64,000 nt of DNA from an uncultured Gammaproteobacteria bacterium (GCA_913009875.1 CAJVYS010000002.1:2073-66072), one strand, 5' to 3'. Shown: positions 4,966 through 61,479, numbered from the stretch's first letter. Translations and numbers: made by a program. The notes: generated by a model not told the origin, from the letters alone.

Positions 4966-5034
4966 TGGCAGGGCAGGTGGGATAACATCCCATTGCGAAC
5001 GATAGGGTACAGGGCTGTGGGAGCGGCTTCAGCC

Positions 5035-5081
5035 GCGAAGCATTCTTGGCACTGCCTTCGCGGCTGAAGCCGCTCCCACAG
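5035..5081. repeat. REP-A hairpin: ctgtgggagcggcttcagccgcgaa ... ttcgcggctgaagccgctcccacag
   Basis: The inverted repeat is perfect. The family recurs at 6108, 18741, 27240 (half) and 33471. Confidence 0.75.
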
Positions 5082-5122: not shown

Positions 5123-6049
5123 ATGTTCGGTCTTTTTTCAAAACAGTCCAACGCCGGCTATGCCGCCCTGGTACCCGGAGAAGCGGGCCTCTGCGTGGCC
5201 AGCATCGCCGCCAACGGCAAGCCGCCACGGCTGGAGGCCTGCGACTTCATGCCCTGGCCGGAAGGCGGGGATAAGAAAAAATTGCTGGCCGACGCGGTGC
5301 GCCGCCACCGGCTGGAAAAGCGCGCCTGTACCACGGTGATGGAACTGGACGACTACACGGTGTTGAGCGTAGAGGCGCCGGACGTGCCGCCGGATGAACT
5401 GCGGGCGGCGATTCGCTGGCAGATCAAGGATCTGATCGATTTTCATATCGACGACGCGGTGGTGGATATCTTCGATGCACCGCCCAGTGGCGCGCATGGC
5501 CGGCAGAATACGCTGTATGTGGTGGTGTCGCGGCTTTCCCGGGTGCGTGAGCGTGTCGACCCGCTGCAGGACGCCGAGGCCAATCTCACCACCATCGATA
5601 TTCCCGAACTGGTACTGCGCAATATTACCGCGCGCCTGCCGGAAGATGAGACCGGGGTGGCTTTCATCTATCTCACCCGTGAGCGTGGGTTGTTGATTAT
5701 TACCCGTCAGTCGACGCTGTATTTCGCCCGCACCCTGGGTATGGGTTATGCCGCGTTGAGTGATGGCGATCATGCGCAGTACGACCAACTGGTGCTGGAG
5801 GTGCAGCGCTCGCTGGATTATTACGACCGTTATTTTGTGCAGCCGCCGGTGGCGGGGTTGGTGCTGGCACCCTGCGAGGTGCCTCTGTCGGGGTTGGAAG
5901 GGTATCTGCACGATTCGCTGGGATTGGCCGTGCGTAGTCTGAACCTGCAAGAGATCATTGCCTGTGATCACGCCATGGACACCGCCACCCAGGCGCGCTG
6001 TCTGCCGGCCATTGGTGCGGCCTTGCGGCAGGAGCAGGCTGTTTTGTAA
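5123..6049 (+). CDS. MSHA biogenesis protein MshI-like (PilM-like N-terminal domain)
   Basis: The N-terminus MFGLFSKQSNAGYAALVPGEAGLCVASIA and the overall architecture resemble MshI-family proteins. It sits next to the pilin gene block. Confidence 0.5.
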   Translation: MFGLFSKQSNAGYAALVPGEAGLCVASIAANGKPPRLEACDFMPWPEGGDKKKLLADAVRRHRLEKRACTTVMELDDYTVLSVEAPDVPPDELRAAIRWQIKDLIDFHIDDAVVDIFDAPPSGAHGRQNTLYVVVSRLSRVRERVDPLQDAEANLTTIDIPELVLRNITARLPEDETGVAFIYLTRERGLLIITRQSTLYFARTLGMGYAALSDGDHAQYDQLVLEVQRSLDYYDRYFVQPPVAGLVLAPCEVPLSGLEGYLHDSLGLAVRSLNLQEIIACDHAMDTATQARCLPAIGAALRQEQAVL

Positions 6050-6050
6050 C

Positions 6051-6209
6051 AGCGGGCCATGCCCGCGATTGCTTTGCCTTTCACCAAGAGGTAATGGATT
6101 TGGACATTGTGGGAGCGGCTTCAGCCGCGAATGAAATCTGCCTTCTTCGCGGCTGAAGCCGCTCCCACAAGTTATTGTCTTTCGCTGTTTTTCGCGGGCA
6201 TGGCCCGCT
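6051..6209. repeat. Composite palindromic element, about 160 bp. The outer inverted repeats are agcgggccatgcccgcga / tcgcgggcatggcccgct, and the inner REP-A hairpin is at 6108-6169.
   Basis: The outer inverted repeat is seen directly. A second copy with the same architecture lies at 33424-33575. Confidence 0.6.
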
Positions 6210-6539
6210 CCTCCACAAATAGCACAGTAGGTTGGGGTGAACGTTTTTTGTGAACCCCAACGTTCCCGCCGGTGATGCACAATATTGTGCGCCCGCCCTT
6301 TTTGTGCGCGCTATTTTGGTGCGCCAGCCGCCGGGCTGTTCTTTCTCTTCGCCTTAACTCTTTGATATATCTGACCGTTTCTATTCTGGCCTGGGTCTTG
6401 CTATTAGGTTGGCATCCCTTTGCGCCGCTGGCGTGCCATTCGGCGCTGCGCCCGCAGATGGGGTTAAATTTCCAAGGGTAGAGTGCCACCAACGGGTGGT
6501 GCCGGATCACGAAAACTAAATTATCGAGGAATTTTATCC

Positions 6540-15045: not shown

Positions 15046-15266
15046 CAAAGGGGGTAGTCAATTAACGCCTCCTAGCACAAGATATAGGAACTACATGTAA
15101 CTGGATTTCTCAGTATATTATCTTGTAATACGCTGTTTTTATTGCTAATAATATTCTCTTGTGTCGTCTGGTGTTAAGTCGCAAATACACAGCATATAGT
15201 GGGTGGAGGCGCTAGCTGACTACCCCCTTTTGTGCAATAGAACTACCCCCTTTTGTGCAATAGAAG
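15046..15266. mobile_element. MITE-like element with inverted repeats of about 28 bp (caaagggggtagtcaattaacgcctcc / ggaggcgctagctgactacccccttttg) and a tandem 23-bp duplication on the right
   Basis: The inverted repeats flank an AT-rich core of about 130 bp. The unit ctacccccttttgtgcaatagaa occurs twice in tandem. Confidence 0.4.
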
Positions 15267-18740: not shown

Positions 18741-18819
18741 TGTGGGAGCGGCTTTAGCCGCGAAAAGGACTGGCATCGTTCTTCGTGGCGTGTCATTCGC
18801 GGCTGAAGCCGCTCCCACA
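18741..18819. repeat. REP-A hairpin pair
   Basis: tgtgggagcggctttagccgcgaa ... ttcgcggctgaagccgctcccacaa. Confidence 0.7.
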
Positions 18820-27239: not shown

Positions 27240-27265
27240 TTCGCGGCTGAAGCGGCTCCCACAGA
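27240..27265. repeat. Solo REP-A half-site
   Basis: ttcgcggctgaagcggctcccacag with no partner arm. Confidence 0.5.
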
Positions 27266-28081: not shown

Positions 28082-28790
28082 GGATTGAGAGAGGAACAAC
28101 AAGCCACAGAGGCACAGAGAACGCAGAGGCAACAAAATAGTTTTTCTCCGTGTGCTCTGAGCCTCTGTGGCTTGTTTTTGGATCAGAATATCGGCGTTGC
28201 TGCTGCCACAGCCCATAAGCCAGCAGGCCGAGGCTGACGGAACCGATCACACCCTGCCACCACCAACTCAGTTCAAAGCCATCCGCGCCCAGCCCGTAGG
28301 CGATGACGAAGCCGATCCAGGTGGGACCGGCGCAGTGGTCGATGGAGGTCATGTAGGTGAAGGCCAACACCAACCCCGCCACCCCCGTCAGTCCGACGAT
28401 CATGCCCTTTTCCCCTTGTCCGTATCGCGCCAGCGGCAGCAGCAGCCGGCCACCCAGCAGGGCGGCAACGAGATACACGCCCAGGGTCAGGGCATCGTAT
28501 TCCAGGGTCCAGATGTCGAGCCCGGTCTGCATGTCCCGGTGGGCGAAGGCGATGAAGGATTTGGTGAGGATGAACTGCAGCGCCCCCAGCGGCTGCTCCT
28601 GCCAGATCAGCTGAAACATGGGCAAATAGCTGCCCACCGGGGTCAGCATGTGGTTCACCCAGCCGCCGTTGAGCAGCATGATGGGCAATAGGCTGAAGAC
28701 GAAAAAAGCCAGCAGCAACAGTCCGCTCAAGCCCAGCCATAGACGGGTGGTTGAGTGGGGGGTGGAATTTACCTCTGCGTGGCTGTTCAT
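27996..28790 (-). CDS. Hypothetical polytopic membrane protein. Its C-terminus reads through a palindromic repeat and overlaps the uppP 3' end by 85 bp, so the true end is uncertain.
   Basis: It has multiple hydrophobic helices. The ORF has no stop before 27996, but its last 60 aa or so translate the hairpin at 28100-28175. Confidence 0.45.
   Translation of the reverse strand: MNSHAEVNSTPHSTTRLWLGLSGLLLLAFFVFSLLPIMLLNGGWVNHMLTPVGSYLPMFQLIWQEQPLGALQFILTKSFIAFAHRDMQTGLDIWTLEYDALTLGVYLVAALLGGRLLLPLARYGQGEKGMIVGLTGVAGLVLAFTYMTSIDHCAGPTWIGFVIAYGLGADGFELSWWWQGVIGSVSLGLLAYGLWQQQRRYSDPKTSHRGSEHTEKNYFVASAFSVPLWLVVPLSILTGTAPVTPRPAPSDRSRRAAYRCAPAA
28100..28175. repeat. Palindromic element built from GCACAGAGA / ACGCAGAGG-type 9-mers, of the same family as 40424-40538
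   Basis: caagccacagaggcacagagaacgcagagg ... cctctgtggcttg forms an inverted repeat of about 26 bp. Confidence 0.5.
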
Positions 28791-33377: not shown

Positions 33378-33423
33378 CGTTTCGGACATTTATTGTAGGG
33401 TGTGTGGTTAACATACAAAGGAG

Positions 33424-33575
33424 TGGGCCATGCCCGCGATAGTCCCGCATTTCACCACAGAGATAGAGGATTTGCACATTGTGGGAGCGGCTTCAGCCGC
33501 GAAGAAGGCAGGTTTCATTCGCGGCTGAAGCCGCTCCCACAGGTTGTTTTTTGTTGCTTTTCGCGGGCATGGCCC
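33424..33575. repeat. Composite palindromic element, the second copy of the 6051-6209 architecture, with an inner REP-A hairpin at 33471-33543
   Basis: The outer repeats are gtgggccatgcccgcga / tcgcgggcatggcccg. Confidence 0.6.
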
Positions 33576-33669
33576 GTTCCTACGCTGTTGCAGACACAGT
33601 CCGGCAGCTTGTCGGCCGGCACTGATTGTCGCAGACTGTCCAAGAACCTGAACCCAAGGAGATCGACCC

Positions 33670-44816: not shown

Positions 44817-44893
44817 GCGCCTGTAGCTCAGCTGGATAGAGTACCGCCCTCCGAAGGCGGGGGTCACAGGTTCGACTCCTGTCAGGCGCGCCA
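44817..44893 (+). tRNA. tRNA-Arg (anticodon CCG)
   Basis: It has a cloverleaf fold with acceptor stem gcgcctg/caggcgc, anticodon loop ctCCGaa, T-arm ggttcgact and a CCA end. Confidence 0.85.
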
Positions 44894-44955: not shown

Positions 44956-45150
44956 GGCACAAGCGGGCACAGCCATCGTAACTATTAGCTAACATTCATT
45001 TTTAAAATTGACCGTTAGCCAACATAGTGGATTTTGTGCCCATTTTAGCCTGTGCCCAGATTGTGCCCACCCTGTGCCATGTTTGAAATTTCGGGTTTAA
45101 ATATTAGACGGTATGAGCTCAATTTTGATTGTTAGCTTCCGTGGGCACAG
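44956..45150. promoter_or_regulatory. Iteron-like array of TGTGCCCA-type repeats immediately downstream of tRNA-Arg
   Basis: tgtgcccat, tgtgcccag, tgtgcccac and tgtgccatg occur at a period of about 11 bp. There are also gggcacag copies and an inverted gtgggcacag. Confidence 0.35.
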
Positions 45151-50472: not shown

Positions 50473-52815
50473 TTAGCGGGTCAGGCTGGCAAACAGCGTC
50501 GGCAGTTTTTCCGGCAAACGCTCGACGTGATCGATGATGGTGTAATTGTTGACGCCGAAAATACGCTTTACGTAGCGGTCGGCGTTGCGATCCAGGGTCA
50601 GACAGTAGCTCATCACGCCCTTGCTCGCCAGCTCCTCTACGGCCTTCTTGGTATCCATGCGCAGATGCTGGGGATCGCGCTCATCGATATCCGCCGGTTC
50701 ACCGTCGGTCACCAGCAGCAGCAGTTTCTTCCGCTCCTGCTGATTCAACAGGTGCCGGGCGGCGTGGCGCATGGCGGCACCCATGCGCGTGGATAGCCCG
50801 CCCTGCATACCGGCCAAGCGTGCCTTGACGTCATCGTCCCAATACTGGTTGAAATCCTTGAAGCGGTAGTATTGCACGTCGTGGCGGCTGTCGGAGGAAA
50901 AGCCATGAATGGCGAACGGATCGCCTACGCCGTTGATGGCGGTGGAGACCAGAGCGGCCGCCTCACGGGTCAGTTCCAGCACGGTTTTATCCGAACCGTC
51001 TATCTTTTCGTTGGTGGATTCAGACAGATCGAGCAACACCACCACGCTGAGGTCACGATTCTTGACCACGTTGCGCATGGTGATGCGCGGGTTGGGTTGT
51101 TCGCCCATGCGAATGGAGATCATGGCATCGATGGCGGCATTGAGGTCGATCTCGTCGCCGTCTTCCATGTTGCGCACCCGCTGCACACCTTCCGGCTGCA
51201 GCATGTCGATGATCTGTTTGATGCGCTGGGTGACGGGTTTGTGCTCGATCAGAATCTGGTCGATAAGCTCCGGGTCACCCTTGGGCTGATGTCGTTCGTA
51301 GACCGTGGCCCAGTCCGGGCGGTGCAGCTGCACCTGATAGTCCCACTCCTGATAGTGGTAGGGTTCAGATACCGGCTCTTTGCCCCACATGTCATTGAAA
51401 CTGACCGTGGCGACGCCGGCATCTTCGTAGGGCATGAATTCAGTGGGGCAGACCCAGATTTCCTGGGCGTCATCACCGGCCAGCTCACAATCCACTTCAT
51501 GGGCCATCTCAATAGCCGACACATATTTGCGTACCTGGCGCTGGCTCGCGGCGACATACTCTACGCCATCCTGCCAGGCGAATTCGTCGAAATCCCACAG
51601 CAGGCGATTGTCATCACGATAGGGAATGCGCAGCGATTCGAGGATGCGCAGGCTGGGTACGTCCCTGCGCACCGCGAGTATGTTGAACAGTTCCAGCCCC
51701 ATGTGCCAGGAGAACTGGGGATTGGTCTTGTTGGCCTCGATATTGGTGTGGAAGCGTTCGGCCAGCGTGTTGAGTTCGGCATCATCTCCCTTGACGGCGC
51801 TGTCGAGCAGCATCAACGCCATCCGCTCCAGCAAGGTAACGGTGGGGTGCTGCGGTGCATCCGCATAGTCGATACTGAGCAGCGCACCCCAGAGTTTTTT
51901 CAGGCCGGGAAAATTCTGCACGGCGCAATACTCGACCCGTGCATCTTCCATGAAGCCGATGAAAAACATCTGCGCCGGGCTGAGCTGTTCGGCGGAGAGT
52001 GGCTCGTGGGTATACATCAGGTGTGCGCCCTGGTGGACGACCATGGCGCGGTAAAGCTCGTGCCCCTTCACATCGTTAATGCCATCCACCGCATCGGGCA
52101 GGTGCATTATGCGAAATTCCAGATAGGGTTTGAAGCCTTCGTGATCGGCGGCGCTGGGACGCAGGAAGAAATCACGCCCCCACAGGGCACGCAGATAGAA
52201 ATTCATCTTGCGTTGATTATCGATAAATAGCGTGCCGCGGCGTTCCTTCTGCAGCATCGCCTTGGCGTCTTCGGTTTGTAGGCTGAAATAAGCCACCTGC
52301 CCCGGTAAATCACGGGCATAGGCCTGGGCGCCATAAAGTGCCCAGCGTTTCAAGCCACTCAGCGTCAGCCTGGAGAGCAACTCATCCATGATGGCTAGCA
52401 TGGGGCGTAACCCACGGGAGGATCTGGCGGCGAGTTGGTGGATCAGATTCAGGTAACCGCGCAACAGCTCCGGGTCGCCGAGGCGACGGGCGACCGTCGG
52501 CAGAGAGGAAAACAGCAGGGCGATGACCTCACCGGAGGTCATGGAAGAGAGCTTCATGGCCGCGGCGATACAATCGCGGATGATGTCGTCGCCACATTCC
52601 TTGGTGACAGCCGGCATATTTTCTAAAAAAGAAGTGACCAGATTGCCGCCACGGCCCAGGTTTGCCAGACCTTTGGCCCCCTCCAGGTAGTCATGCAGAG
52701 CAATGGCCGACATGTTGCGTGCCGCGTCGTGGAAGGTGGCATCCAGAGTGTCTTTCAGCTCAGGTGCGGCCCCTTCCAGGATCTCACGGTAGTCGTCCAG
52801 GTCAATGCTCGTCAT
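50473..52815 (-). CDS. cbbO: RuBisCO activation protein CbbO (von Willebrand factor A domain)
   Basis: The protein is 780 aa long and has a C-terminal VWA domain with a MIDAS motif (VLLDLSESTN). It lies directly downstream of cbbQ. Confidence 0.8.
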   Translation of the reverse strand: MTSIDLDDYREILEGAAPELKDTLDATFHDAARNMSAIALHDYLEGAKGLANLGRGGNLVTSFLENMPAVTKECGDDIIRDCIAAAMKLSSMTSGEVIALLFSSLPTVARRLGDPELLRGYLNLIHQLAARSSRGLRPMLAIMDELLSRLTLSGLKRWALYGAQAYARDLPGQVAYFSLQTEDAKAMLQKERRGTLFIDNQRKMNFYLRALWGRDFFLRPSAADHEGFKPYLEFRIMHLPDAVDGINDVKGHELYRAMVVHQGAHLMYTHEPLSAEQLSPAQMFFIGFMEDARVEYCAVQNFPGLKKLWGALLSIDYADAPQHPTVTLLERMALMLLDSAVKGDDAELNTLAERFHTNIEANKTNPQFSWHMGLELFNILAVRRDVPSLRILESLRIPYRDDNRLLWDFDEFAWQDGVEYVAASQRQVRKYVSAIEMAHEVDCELAGDDAQEIWVCPTEFMPYEDAGVATVSFNDMWGKEPVSEPYHYQEWDYQVQLHRPDWATVYERHQPKGDPELIDQILIEHKPVTQRIKQIIDMLQPEGVQRVRNMEDGDEIDLNAAIDAMISIRMGEQPNPRITMRNVVKNRDLSVVVLLDLSESTNEKIDGSDKTVLELTREAAALVSTAINGVGDPFAIHGFSSDSRHDVQYYRFKDFNQYWDDDVKARLAGMQGGLSTRMGAAMRHAARHLLNQQERKKLLLLVTDGEPADIDERDPQHLRMDTKKAVEELASKGVMSYCLTLDRNADRYVKRIFGVNNYTIIDHVERLPEKLPTLFASLTR

Positions 52816-52880: not shown

Positions 52881-53744
52881 TTATTCAAAGAACGTAGAAA
52901 CGGCCGCATCCAGTGTTTCACGCATATCCGGATCATCCGTCAGCGGGCGCACCAGCGCCACTCGGCAAGCCACAATCGGATCCAGGCCCTTGACAATGAG
53001 CTGGCCGGCATACACCAACAGCCGGGTGGAGATACCTTCATCCAGGCCGTGACCCTTGAGGTTACGGCCGCGCTCACCGATTTGCACCAGCTTTTCGGCG
53101 GTCGCCTTGTCCACGCCGGCCTCTTTGCTGATGATTTCTATCTCGGTTTCAACATTGGGATAATCAAAATCCAGGGCGCCAAAACGCTGCTTGGTGGACT
53201 GTTTCAGATCCTTCATCAGGCTCTGGTAGCCGGGGTTATAGGAGATCACCAGCTGAAAGTCCGGATGGCACTTCACCAGCTCGCCCTTTTTCTCCAGGGG
53301 CAGCTCGCGTCGATGGTCGGTGACGGGATGGATGACGACAATGGTGTCCTGGCGGGCTTCCACCACCTCATCCAGATAGCAGATGGCGCCGATACGTGCA
53401 GCCAGGGTCAGCGGACCGTCCTGCCATTTTGTGCCGTCTTTATCGAGCAGGAAACGCCCCACCAGGTCGGAGGCGGTCATGTCCTCGTTGCAGGCCACGG
53501 TGATCAACGGCTTGCCCAGCTTCCAGGCCATGTACTCCACGAAACGGGATTTACCACAACCCGTTGGTCCTTTCAGCATCATGGGCATGCGTGCGGCATA
53601 GGCCGCTTCGTAGGTGTCTACCTCGTCTGCAACCGGGCAGTAATACGGCTCTTCGGTAATCGTGTATTGCGACGCAACATTATCCACTTTTTTTTCCGCG
53701 ACTGGGCTCATCGTTTGATCCTCATCTTTGTCCGCATGCTTCAT
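52881..53744 (-). CDS. cbbQ: RuBisCO activase CbbQ (MoxR-type AAA+ ATPase)
   Basis: It has the Walker A motif GPTGCGKS and MoxR-family blocks. It lies downstream of cbbLS. Confidence 0.85.
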
Positions 53745-53792
53745 AAAAAAACCGATTCGTCACCGGGCTCTTTAGGAAATATGCGAGGTAAA

Positions 53793-54056
53793 GGGCACTT
53801 CTAATGATGGCTTGTGGCCTCTGCGCAACCTGGCAAGGGTTGGCGCAAGACGGCTTGCGAAGGGAAGGCTGGTTGCCCTTTCCAAGCAAGCCAACGCAGT
53901 GCCTGCCCTTGCCAGGCAGCGCCCTGCGGGGCCTACAGGCTGGTTCGCACTCGGCGTTGCAACTTTACGCCAAGCTACCAGCTTGCCTTTAAAGTTGCGT
54001 CTTGATTGCGAACCAGTCTGTAGGCCAGAGGCCGCAAGCCATCATTAGAAGTGCCC
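53793..54056. repeat. Complex nested palindromic element of 264 bp in the cbbS-cbbQ intergenic region. It has outer inverted repeats of 31 bp (30 of 31 identical) and a nested 18-bp inverted repeat.
   Basis: The outer repeats are gggcacttctaatgatggcttgtggcctctg ... cagaggccgcaagccatcattagaagtgccc. The inner repeats are cctacaggctggttcgca / tgcgaaccagtctgtagg. Confidence 0.6.
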
Positions 54057-54107
54057 TAAAACATGACCCGGAAAAATCCGGGCCATGTCGATACTCAATG
54101 CCGACAA

Positions 54108-54464
54108 TTAGGTTGGCGTACCACGGAAGATAACCATGGATGCACCTTGTGATTGGGCAAAGTTGTCAAAACCAACCAGGCGAACATGATTGTTTGGGTG
54201 TGCCTTATGGGCCGCTTCCGCTTCAGCCAGGATGCGATCCACATCCGTCTCACCGAACATCGGCAGCTTCCACATGTACCAGTAAGAGCTGAAGGCATTG
54301 GCGGGTTCGGTGTGCTCAATGGCCGGGTTCCAGCCCTTGGAGACAATGTACTGAACCTGTGCCTTGATTTGCTCGTTAGTCATTTCCGGCAGGTAGGAAA
54401 ATGTTTCGAACTTCCGGCTTGAGACATCGCTCAGGCTGGATTTGTAATCTTGCATTTCACTCAT
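54108..54464 (-). CDS. cbbS: RuBisCO small subunit
   Basis: It is 118 aa long, with [13 protein letters not shown]... and the motif KGWNPAIEH. Confidence 0.9.
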
Positions 54465-54566: not shown

Positions 54567-55988
54567 TTACTTGTGTGCAACGTCCAGCTTGTCCACCGTG
54601 TCGAATTCGAACTTGATCTCTTTCCAGGTTTCCATGGCCATCTTCAGCTCAGGGCTGGACTTGGCGGCACCGTTCAAGATGTCTTTGCCTTCCTTCTCCA
54701 GCTCGCGACCTTCGTTACGCGCCTGCACGCAGGCTTCCACCGCCACACGGTTGGCCGCCGCACCGGCTGCGTTGCCCCAGGGGTGGCCCAGGGTGCCGCC
54801 ACCGAACTGCAGCACAGAGTCATCACCGAAGATGTTCACCAGTGCAGGCATATGCCAGACGTGGATACCACCAGAGGCAACCGGCATGACACCCGGCATG
54901 GCGCCAAAGTCTTGATCGAAGAAGATACCGCGTGAACGGTCTTCCTTGATGAAAGAGTCACGCATGATATCGATCCAGCCCAGAGTCGCCTCGCGGTCAC
55001 CTTCCAGCTTGCCGACAACGGTGCCGGAGTGCAGGTGATCACCACCGGACAGACGCAGGCACTTGGTCAGTACGCGGAAATGAATACCGTGGTGGGGGTT
55101 GCGATCCATGACCGCATGCATGGCGCGGTGAATGTGCAGCAACATGCCGTTATCACGACACCAGTTGGCCAGGCCCGTATTGGCGCAGAAGCCGCCGGTC
55201 AGGTAATCGTGCATGATGATCGGTGCGCCGATTTCTTTGGCGAATTCGGCACGCTTGTACATCTCTTCAGGCGTGGCCGCCGTGACATTCAGGTAATGAC
55301 CCTTCTTCTCGCCGGTCTCTGCCTGCGCCTTTTCGGTCGCTTCCTGGACGAACTCGAAACGATCACGCCAGCGCATGAACGGCTGGGAGTTGACGTTCTC
55401 GTCATCCTTGGTGAAATCGAGACCACCACGCAGACCTTCATAACAGGCGCGGCCATAGTTCTTGGCGGACAGACCCAGCTTGGGCTTGATGGTGCAACCG
55501 AGCATCGGACGACCGTACTTGTTCATCTTGTCGCGTTCGACCTGGATACCGTTAGGCGGTCCACCACAGGTCATGACATAAGCCAGCGGGAAGCGAATGT
55601 CTTCCAGGCGCAGGGCGCGCAGCGCCTTGAAGCCGAATACGTTACCGACCAGAGAGGTCAGCACGTTGACCATCGAACCCTCTTCGAACAGATCGATCGG
55701 ATAAGCGATGAAGGCATAGAAGGCCTCGTCATCACCCGGCACGTCTTCGATGGCGTAGGCACGACCCTTGTAATGGTCGAGGTCAGTGAGAAGGTCGGTC
55801 CAGACGGTGGTCCAGGTACCGGTGGAAGATTCGGCTGCAACAGCAGCAGCGATCTCTTCACGCGGCACACCCGCCTGCGGAATGACCTTGAAGCAGGCCA
55901 GAATATCGCTTTCCTTGGGCGTATACTCGGGCATCCAATAAGTTTCGCGGTATTCTTTTACGCCCGCGCTATAGGTTTTATCAGCCAT
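54567..55988 (-). CDS. cbbL: RuBisCO large subunit, form I (green-like IA)
   Basis: It is 473 aa long and has the active-site blocks [23 protein letters not shown] and the GxDFxKxDE lysine region. Confidence 0.95.
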
Positions 55989-61220: not shown

Positions 61221-61479
61221 GATGCTAAGTATATCGTCCAATGTGGAAAATTTCTAATTTGGGCGTCTTGGGAGCTTGTCGGACTTAGGGAGAATCTACT
61301 ACGGCGGCGGGAAATCGGCCCATTTTTTCGATCCTTTTCGTTAAATAGGTCCACTATTTACCTACATGGATGTAGGCAAGGGGCGATAGCAGGACGCGGT
61401 AGCTTCGCCTCAAAGGATCAAAAAAATGGCCTCGATTTCCCACTCGCCTTGCTACGATTCCCTAAGTCCGACAAGCTCC

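Follow-up and report, generated by a model that had tools for sequence, protein, structure and literature searches.

A nested palindrome within the RuBisCO operon

What is the long palindrome that lies between cbbS and cbbQ in the RuBisCO operon of an uncultured gammaproteobacterium? An earlier note on the DNA stretch analysed here (the window, 64,000 nucleotides) had placed it inside the cbbLS-QO transcription unit and had left two readings open: a MITE-like insertion, or a structured RNA that sets the stoichiometry of cbbLS to cbbQO. The placement agrees with the gene coordinates (Table 1), and all four cbb genes are on the minus strand, a detail absent from that note. The near-perfect inverted repeats of 31 bp (30/31) described at 53793-54056 are also present; a repeat search extends them to 32-bp terminal arms, 31/32 complementary (97%) and 202 nt apart, that bound a nested palindrome of 266 bp at 53792-54057. 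The previous limits correspond to the element minus its outermost A/T pair. The symmetry that had been noticed in the interior is real, and resolves into two long imperfect palindromes inside the arms, here called hairpins A and B.

Folding predicts a three-way junction (Y shape) on either strand, in which the terminal stem encloses hairpin A, a CCnnnGG mini-hairpin and hairpin B, and 105-112 pairs are formed out of ~133 possible. The MFE is -191.3 kcal/mol (z = -17.6) for the plus strand and -179.4 kcal/mol (z = -12.2) for the minus strand, which is the mRNA sense; for each strand, 0 of 200 shuffles fold as well. The antisense strand is therefore the better folded of the two (-191 vs -179 kcal/mol). 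The 23-nt terminus occurs twice in the window (0.00 expected), both times as an arm of the element. The longest ORF within the element (78 aa, 53812-54048, plus strand) has no Pfam domains and matches only other short spurious ORFs from the same element family, so the element is judged to be without coding capacity. Covariance models of Rfam 15 give only sub-threshold chance matches to the element (E >= 0.2), and a comparison of the whole window with Rfam returns two tRNAs and nothing else. No promoter directed toward cbbQ was found within the element on the minus strand.

Table 1. Positions of the element and its parts, of the surrounding cbb features, and of family members and REP-like repeats.
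Feature	Position	Strand	Description
Element proper	53793..54056	.	264 bp, GGGCAC...GTGCCC; non-coding, palindromic throughout; three-way junction fold, either strand
Terminal inverted repeat, left + strand arm	53792..53823	.	AGGGCACTTCTAATGATGGCTTGTGGCCTCTG; 3' arm in mRNA sense
Terminal inverted repeat, right + strand arm	54026..54057	.	5' arm in mRNA sense
Internal hairpin A	53823..53922	.	~100 nt; imperfect palindrome, 22-nt core arms, 82%
Junction mini-hairpin CCTGCGG (CCnnnGG)	53923..53929	.	part of the family's conserved CCTnnGGG block, within the sequence-conserved junction core
Internal hairpin B	53930..54026	.	~97 nt; imperfect palindrome, 23-nt core arms, 91%
Candidate target-site duplication TAAA, left copy	53789..53792	.	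read from sequence
Candidate target-site duplication TAAA, right copy	54057..54060	.	overlaps U-tract of cbbS-distal hairpin
cbbS-distal hairpin + U4	54058..54087	-	outside element; stem 54078-54087 / 54062-54071, loop 54072-54077, U4 54058-54061
Second terminator-like hairpin	53745..53766	-	outside element; CCGGTGACGAATCGG + T7, just upstream of cbbQ leader
cbbL	54567-55988	-	RuBisCO operon
cbbS	54108-54464	-	RuBisCO operon
cbbQ	52881-53711	-	276-aa start, as also called on identical metagenome contig
cbbO	50473-52815	-	RuBisCO operon
Family member L034	1892-2216		metagenome contig, between hypothetical gene and TPR gene; 38-nt arms at 92%
Family member L035/L036	10023-10290		two Ca. Thiodiazotropha MAGs, intergenic near tRNA; same parts, one terminal arm decayed
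REP-like GGAGCGGCTTCAGCCGCGA sites	5015-5081, 6107-6170, 18741-18819, 33480-33541, 27241-27259		

Alleles of the cbbS-cbbQ spacer

The spacer was compared among 30 related cbb loci, collected by exact look-ups of CbbS, CbbQ and their 90% cluster members. Cluster mates at 87% nucleotide identity are annotated as Candidatus Tenderia sp., and the label "Tenderia-like" used here follows from this similarity only. The comparison, which the earlier note had proposed, reveals an insertion polymorphism, with empty outgroups and with deletion derivatives in three sister lineages. All lineages at 82-87% cbbS nucleotide identity (L012-16, L025-33) have an element-free site, and their spacer of ~130 nt keeps a fixed order: the stop codon, a 10-bp GC-rich hairpin followed by TTTT, 15-40 variable nucleotides, TTTCCTAAAGAG, a weak hairpin with T7, and the cbbQ leader. 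In the more distant L003 and L007 the spacer is 80-100 nt long and contains the hairpin only, again with no element.

The ingroup loci are 94-97% identical in cbbS, cbbL and cbbQ, and five allele states occur among them at the one site. Among the loci compared, the full element is found only in the window and in the identical contig L002. L021 and L022 lack hairpin B and the inner part of the right arm, while the partner arm is intact; since that arm is kept, the full form is ancestral, and the difference reflects the loss of ~92-94 nt from these two loci, at a GCCT microhomology, and no gain in the window. L024, from which hairpin B is likewise deleted, shares the same deletion junction (GGCTTGCAGCCTG) and carries a second deletion, after which ~30 nt are left of one arm and 8 nt of its partner. 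A remnant of another kind, consisting of the distal half of hairpin A and one arm, is present in L017, L019 and L020. Finally, the site is empty in L023 and L018 despite their ~97% cbbS identity to the window; in these two, as in L012, the element is missing as one block (263 nt by alignment).

The empty locus L018 and the remnant locus L017 differ at 2 of 357 cbbS positions, and the empty locus L023 has the 3' half of cbbS and the hairpin in common with the window. Across the window, L017, L018, L020, L021, L023 and L024, the 28 variable cbbS sites form a mosaic, L023 being L021-type in its 5' half and window-type in its 3' half. Such a mosaic indicates homologous recombination within the population. 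Given these mosaic sites and the near-identical empty and remnant loci, the alleles segregate in a single recombining population. The insertion is shown to have occurred within a narrow, recombining population of Tenderia-like marine Gammaproteobacteria.

Identity among orthologous copies of the element is 90%, compared with 83-91% at third codon positions in the flanking genes. A comparison of the window with L021 shows 13 changed pairs, of which ~5 are still paired (one by a compensatory change) and 6-8 are broken; 10% of the paired sites and 14% of the unpaired ones carry substitutions. The L021 form retains its fold (z = -7.1), and the L017 remnant folds no better than shuffles (z = -0.5). 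Judged by these comparisons, resident copies are shown to drift at about the neutral rate without pairing constraint, and to be lost piecemeal by deletions. G.U pairs, counted from per-strand folds (which replaced a consensus-structure count biased by how the consensus was derived), number 8/4 on the two strands in the window and 6/7, 4/2 and 8/7 in other copies, with no consistent strand bias. This fits a palindrome of DNA rather than one functional RNA strand. Of the properties that would mark a cis-regulatory RNA, neither pairing kept among orthologous copies nor specificity for the transcribed strand is seen, and rather than being conserved in orthologous operons the element is absent from all outgroup lineages sampled (15 loci) and from 2 ingroup loci, and partly deleted in 6.

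Outside the element, the spacer contains two tandem motifs, each a hairpin with a T-run. The cbbS-distal hairpin reads CATGGCCCGG-ATTTTT-CCGGGTCATG on the minus strand (54062-54087), with UUUU after it. When 11 distinct lineages with 78-100% cbbS identity are aligned, its 10-bp stem is paired in 110 of 110 cells and 4 of its 10 pairs show compensatory changes, while slid controls pair only 23-50%. The second hairpin (53745-53766) is kept in all relatives with apparent covariation, e.g. CTGAT...ATCAG in L025. From its position and conservation, the cbbS-distal hairpin probably divides cbbLS from cbbQO, acting as a partial terminator or stabiliser. Intercistronic hairpins that follow cbbS/rbcS, and so occupy the same spacer position, have the function that the earlier note had in mind for the palindrome; that role fits the hairpin at 54058-54087 instead, its terminator or stabiliser activity being deduced rather than observed. 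On the same grounds, a part in setting cbbLS:cbbQO stoichiometry fits the small conserved hairpins and not the 264-bp element.

A dispersed family and its conserved structure

Further copies of the element were sought in several ways. No second copy was found in the 64-kb window (exact terminus search and BLAST), in 254 kb of related loci (BLAST) or in plasmid and phage collections (BLAST), and viral contigs contained nothing with a degenerate form of the terminus and nothing with the junction core. Scans of GTDB species representatives and JGI metagenomes with exact 20-mers and 19-mers of the terminus gave chance matches only (L001 and L009-L011, matching by k-mer alone). These exact scans are too strict, because even orthologous copies differ within the k-mer, and they exclude near-identical copies only. 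The check proposed in the earlier note, a search for other copies of the 31-bp terminal repeat, is accordingly negative for near-identical copies in the window, GTDB and JGI; it was too strict as well, since termini vary between family members, and diverged members do exist at other loci.

These members were reached through the spurious 78-aa ORF. A word-indexed protein search with it found nothing, and a HMMER search of 1.84 billion representative proteins gave 22 matches, about 19-20 of them short ORFs of the family, with the common pattern PLRDLKRAGARR..MAVAL.KK.NAA.VRFR.RPSGPTG...L.VA..RQA.S.PSK.RLDCE.ACKPE. Two candidates, P0185 and P0200, were discarded as unrelated repeat proteins. A profile search that started from the ORF matches returned 37 clusters. 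At the DNA level, the interior of L034 consists of hairpin A, then CCTTCGGG, then hairpin B with an enlarged loop, and a further member lies in Ca. Thiodiazotropha (L035/L036; Table 1). In P0201, a 60-aa gene is interrupted in frame by a version of the element without hairpin A. The intact protein, which is conserved (MSKTLDELSKQAFVYECASRALAASF.NPAAKPSIASMVRDAEKLWEELQEWQNRQES), is represented by P0216, P0219, P0222 and P0232, e.g. in Alcanivorax sp. DG881, and the same gene as in P0201 is seen in P0214 and P0236. P0236, another allele, begins with foreign sequence at its N-terminus and comes from a MAG of Alcanivorax jadensis, from which the protein MDF1637049.1 is annotated as an interrupted allele of the 60-aa gene. 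In a separate spurious ORF, P0195 (207 aa), the translation of hairpin B (...SRRSTTTPSKARLDSEP...) is repeated in tandem, in two or three copies, and some members of the family may accordingly occur as tandem or partial arrays.

Named sources of the family are Ca. Thiodiazotropha, Alcanivorax, a Lysobacteraceae MAG and the Tenderia-like lineage of the window, and by these matches the element is one of a dispersed family that occupies unrelated contexts in several gammaproteobacterial genera. No gene could be linked to it: the ~175-aa proteins encoded beside the elements of L034 and L035 show no relationship to one another and lack any Pfam domain, the genes next to these two elements encode no transposase-like domain, and no autonomous IS with matching termini was found in the window, plasmids, phages or viral contigs. 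Literature searches returned no description of the element.

The family ranges in size from ~190 to 330 bp. The terminus A[AG]GGCAC[CT]TCT is common to the window element, L034 and L035, and termini of the family are of the AGGGCAC(C/T)TCTGATTAAT type, with CTTGATTNNGAANNNGNCNGTANNGCCAGAGG as the core pattern. An alignment of the window element with L034, L035 and L021 (A5), which represents three independent family members as DNA, shows conserved blocks at the junction and internal loops (GGCCTCTGCG, GCGCCCTnnGGGGC, GACTCnGCGTTGC, CTTGATT and GCCAGAGG). In A5, pairs form in 93% of cells and compensatory changes are found in 33 of the 92 pairs, slid controls pairing at 33-44%; the covariation score is 0.386 vs 0.185 in shuffles, none of 500 of which reach it. 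Double changes occur in 15 of the 34 pairs of hairpin A (helices 3-5), and compensatory changes in 10 of the 22 pairs of helix 7 in hairpin B, where 98.5% of cells are paired. The pairs of the mini-hairpin (columns 141-147) are invariant. As the family covaries while its resident copies decay, the palindromic structure would be kept by selection on the element's own propagation.

Other palindromic insertions occur in the cbb operons examined. The cbbQ-cbbO spacer, 65 nt long and without insertion in the window, contains a different palindromic insertion of 168 bp in L012 (4321-4488; also in L013-L016), with z = -5.7, flanks TGA/TGA, and ends AGGGCACCTC...GTGCCCT that match the family consensus terminus. 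It was not accepted as a family member, as it scores 23 vs a shuffle mean of 18 and shares the terminus AGGGCACCTC only; GGGCAC occurs often in the window (28 and 21 times), and the insertion is a possible distant relative at most. Two unrelated palindromic insertions of ~150-190 bp, one with the repeat CCTGGCAACACTAT... and the other with GAACCGCGAAGGCGCAAAG..., are found in the cbbQ-cbbO spacer of L028 (3326-3565; also L029-L031) and in the cbbS-cbbQ spacer of L004 (3355-3606) and L005. The spacers of the cbb operon have been repeatedly colonised by palindromic elements.

The window itself is rich in repeats. A REP-like unit, GGAGCGGCTTCAGCCGCGA, is present in nine copies (0.08 expected), eight of which form four REPIN-type inverted doublets, and two of the doublets are nested within inverted pairs of a second unit, TCGCGGGCATGGCCCGC (6042-6218 and 33419-33581). 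A 184-bp element at 15047-15230, with 37-nt inverted arms (78%) and the direct repeat (T)TGTGC(AA) on its flanks, looks like a separate MITE with a target-site duplication. At 61271-61479 there is a 209-bp palindromic element with perfect 21-nt terminal arms (-117 kcal/mol), unrelated in sequence to the cbb element. A long hairpin with 34-nt arms (85%) and a T-run at its end (28095-28179) is possibly a strong terminator in both directions, or else a further repeat element. Downstream of a tRNA gene (44817-44890), three direct copies of TGTGCCCA occur within ~40 nt (45030-45070); they could be a protein-binding array or the remnant of an integration site.

Mobile element or regulatory RNA

The element has the features by which a MITE is recognised: it is shorter than ~500 bp, is without coding capacity, has terminal inverted repeats, and shows presence/absence polymorphism at orthologous sites. 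Empty sites in close and distant relatives, deletion derivatives and a diverged family at unrelated loci all lend support to the MITE-like reading that had been offered before. The most probable interpretation (roughly 75%) is that of a mobile DNA element of the MITE kind, non-autonomous and non-coding, from a family absent from Rfam and from plasmid and phage collections, which the cbb mRNA carries as a passenger.

The target of the insertion was an AT-rich sequence, probably TTTA, bordering the 3' side of the hairpin and U-tract that follow cbbS; the element sits at the 3' end of that U-tract and leaves its four U residues intact. TAAA stands on both sides of GGGCAC...GTGCCC (53793-54056), and the L017 group is flanked likewise (TTTA/TTTA). 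In L021 and L024 matching TAAA flanks are not visible, the left flank having changed. L034 has TTAA/TTAA around GGCAC...GTGCC, where TTAA is palindromic and could equally belong to the inverted repeat. A 4-bp AT-rich target-site duplication is plausible from these flanks. Such a duplication would fit several families of DDE transposases, e.g. IS5-like.

Among known elements, those of the Correia type are simple foldbacks of 100-155 bp with a TA duplication and an IHF site. Correia elements (CREE / NEMIS) and the cbb element are alike in being small and non-coding, with terminal inverted repeats of ~26-32 bp and insertions inside transcription units, and also in forming a long duplex when transcribed and in their strain insertion polymorphism; for the Correia terminal repeats in Neisseria, cleavage by RNase III is documented (PMC10969869; PMC2649163). 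They differ in that there is no sequence similarity, the host clade is another, and the element here has 266 bp, two internal hairpins of ~100 nt and a duplication of 4 bp, if real. Rickettsia palindromic elements (RPEs) are mobile and can enter protein-coding genes in frame. The in-frame insertion into the 60-aa gene, by the version without hairpin A, is similar in this respect, while sequence, size and host are all unrelated. ERIC / IRU elements of Enterobacteriaceae and Vibrionaceae are, likewise, imperfect palindromes that are co-transcribed with flanking genes; but ERIC is ~127 bp long, forms a single hairpin and is unrelated in sequence. Its copies vary from few to hundreds. In Yersinia its presence alters the fate of the mRNA through RNase E (PMC10969869). 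REP units and REPINs, which are mobilised by RAYT, are also palindromic, non-coding and intergenic, with a structure kept by selection on the element rather than the host. According to PMC3733652, a REP unit measures 20-40 bp and bears a GTAG or CGTC tag, and a REPIN spans ~70-110 bp. The cbb element has no such tag, does not match in size, and shows no similarity to the REP doublets of the window.

If the element is a MITE, it would be mobilised in trans by a transposase that recognises its termini, and would travel as a passive passenger within the cbbLSQO mRNA. Its most likely side effect would be cleavage of the 32-bp terminal duplex by RNase III, by analogy with the Correia elements. Such a cut would split the mRNA between its cbbLS and cbbQO parts, in this lineage only, with no conserved regulatory design behind it, and any effect on cbbLS:cbbQO expression is on this interpretation a by-product. 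Several points count against it. No second copy was found in the window or in 254 kb of DNA from related loci, and the element may be present only once in its genome. Searches for a transposase or an autonomous element with matching termini were negative, and the target-site duplication is no more than suggestive. Finally, simple binding of a transposase to the terminal repeats alone does not explain the strong covariation of the internal hairpins.

The covariation of the internal hairpins would be explained if the Y fold itself were the recognised substrate, i.e. if the element were mobile in a structure-dependent manner rather than as a classical TIR/DDE MITE. The route might then be a folded single-stranded DNA or RNA intermediate, e.g. 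one handled by a HUH-type enzyme, hairpin-primed copying, or retro-mobilised RNA. This is the main open alternative, with a chance of being correct that is several times smaller. Compensatory changes are spread over all helices, those of the internal hairpins included, the conserved sequence lies mainly at the three-way junction and in the internal loops, and new copies seem to arrive as near-perfect palindromes and to decay later. However, the clear terminal inverted repeats and the possible 4-bp duplication are both lacking in elements of the IS200/IS605 type, neither strand has an excess of G.U pairs, none of the three contexts has a gene for an RT, an HUH enzyme or another candidate close to the element, and there is no match to a ribozyme or any other Rfam family. 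A joint reading, in which mobilisation depends on the fold, fresh copies are near-perfect palindromes, and the intact copy acts as an entry point for RNase III that uncouples cbbLS and cbbQO mRNA in this lineage, is equally tentative.

Specific systems of this general kind were considered and set aside. A retron msr-msd would require an adjacent RT gene, and the neighbours are cbbS and cbbQ in the window, a hypothetical and a TPR gene in L034 (with an H+-PPase gene beyond the hypothetical one), and a cadherin-like gene and a tRNA in L035. An IS200/IS605-derived element, which would have subterminal hairpins and neither terminal inverted repeats nor a target duplication, was rejected in view of the 32-bp terminal inverted repeats, and Rfam gives no HEARO/OrfB RNA match. 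A group II intron was rejected on anatomy (no RT, no six-domain fold), and a dif/Xer site by eye, for want of resemblance.

That the palindrome is a host-functional structured RNA, i.e. a processing or attenuation device selected to set the ratio of cbbLS to cbbQO, is improbable, and markedly more so than fold-dependent mobility. It does lie within the transcription unit, it is very stable in the mRNA sense (-179 kcal/mol, z = -12), its 32-bp duplex is of the kind that RNase III cuts (PMC10969869), and the window's copy has hardly been damaged (1 mismatch in 32). Yet the element occurs in no orthologous operon beyond a narrow clade, two members of which are also without it, deletions have removed parts of it in three sister lineages (in one of them down to a non-folding remnant), its pairing is under no constraint among orthologous copies, and the antisense strand folds better than the sense. 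The role of attenuator is, moreover, probably already filled by the small hairpin and U-tract, which covary and are present in all lineages. The proposal that a structured RNA here sets cbbLS:cbbQO stoichiometry is thus not supported. Least credible, and largely refuted, is a local, non-mobile palindrome made in place by template-switch replication errors or by inverted duplication of neighbouring sequence: the window does hold a single copy and template switching can perfect palindromes, but no part of the element matches other sequence in the window, and homologous elements with the same termini and junction lie at unrelated loci in other genera.

The preferred interpretation, that of a MITE-like passenger, removes the tempting view of a riboregulator in the RuBisCO operon and shifts attention to the small hairpin after cbbS as the structure likely to set stoichiometry. 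A second outcome is a family of Y-shaped palindromic elements in marine Gammaproteobacteria that is apparently uncatalogued and has a conserved three-way junction as its unusual feature. Strong covariation across the family, together with decay of the resident copies, makes it a clean case of selection at the level of the element and not of the host. The allelic series at this one site (full, hairpin-B-deleted, two kinds of remnant, and empty), held within one recombining population, amounts to a natural experiment that could reveal the effect of a large RNA duplex inside an operon on its expression.
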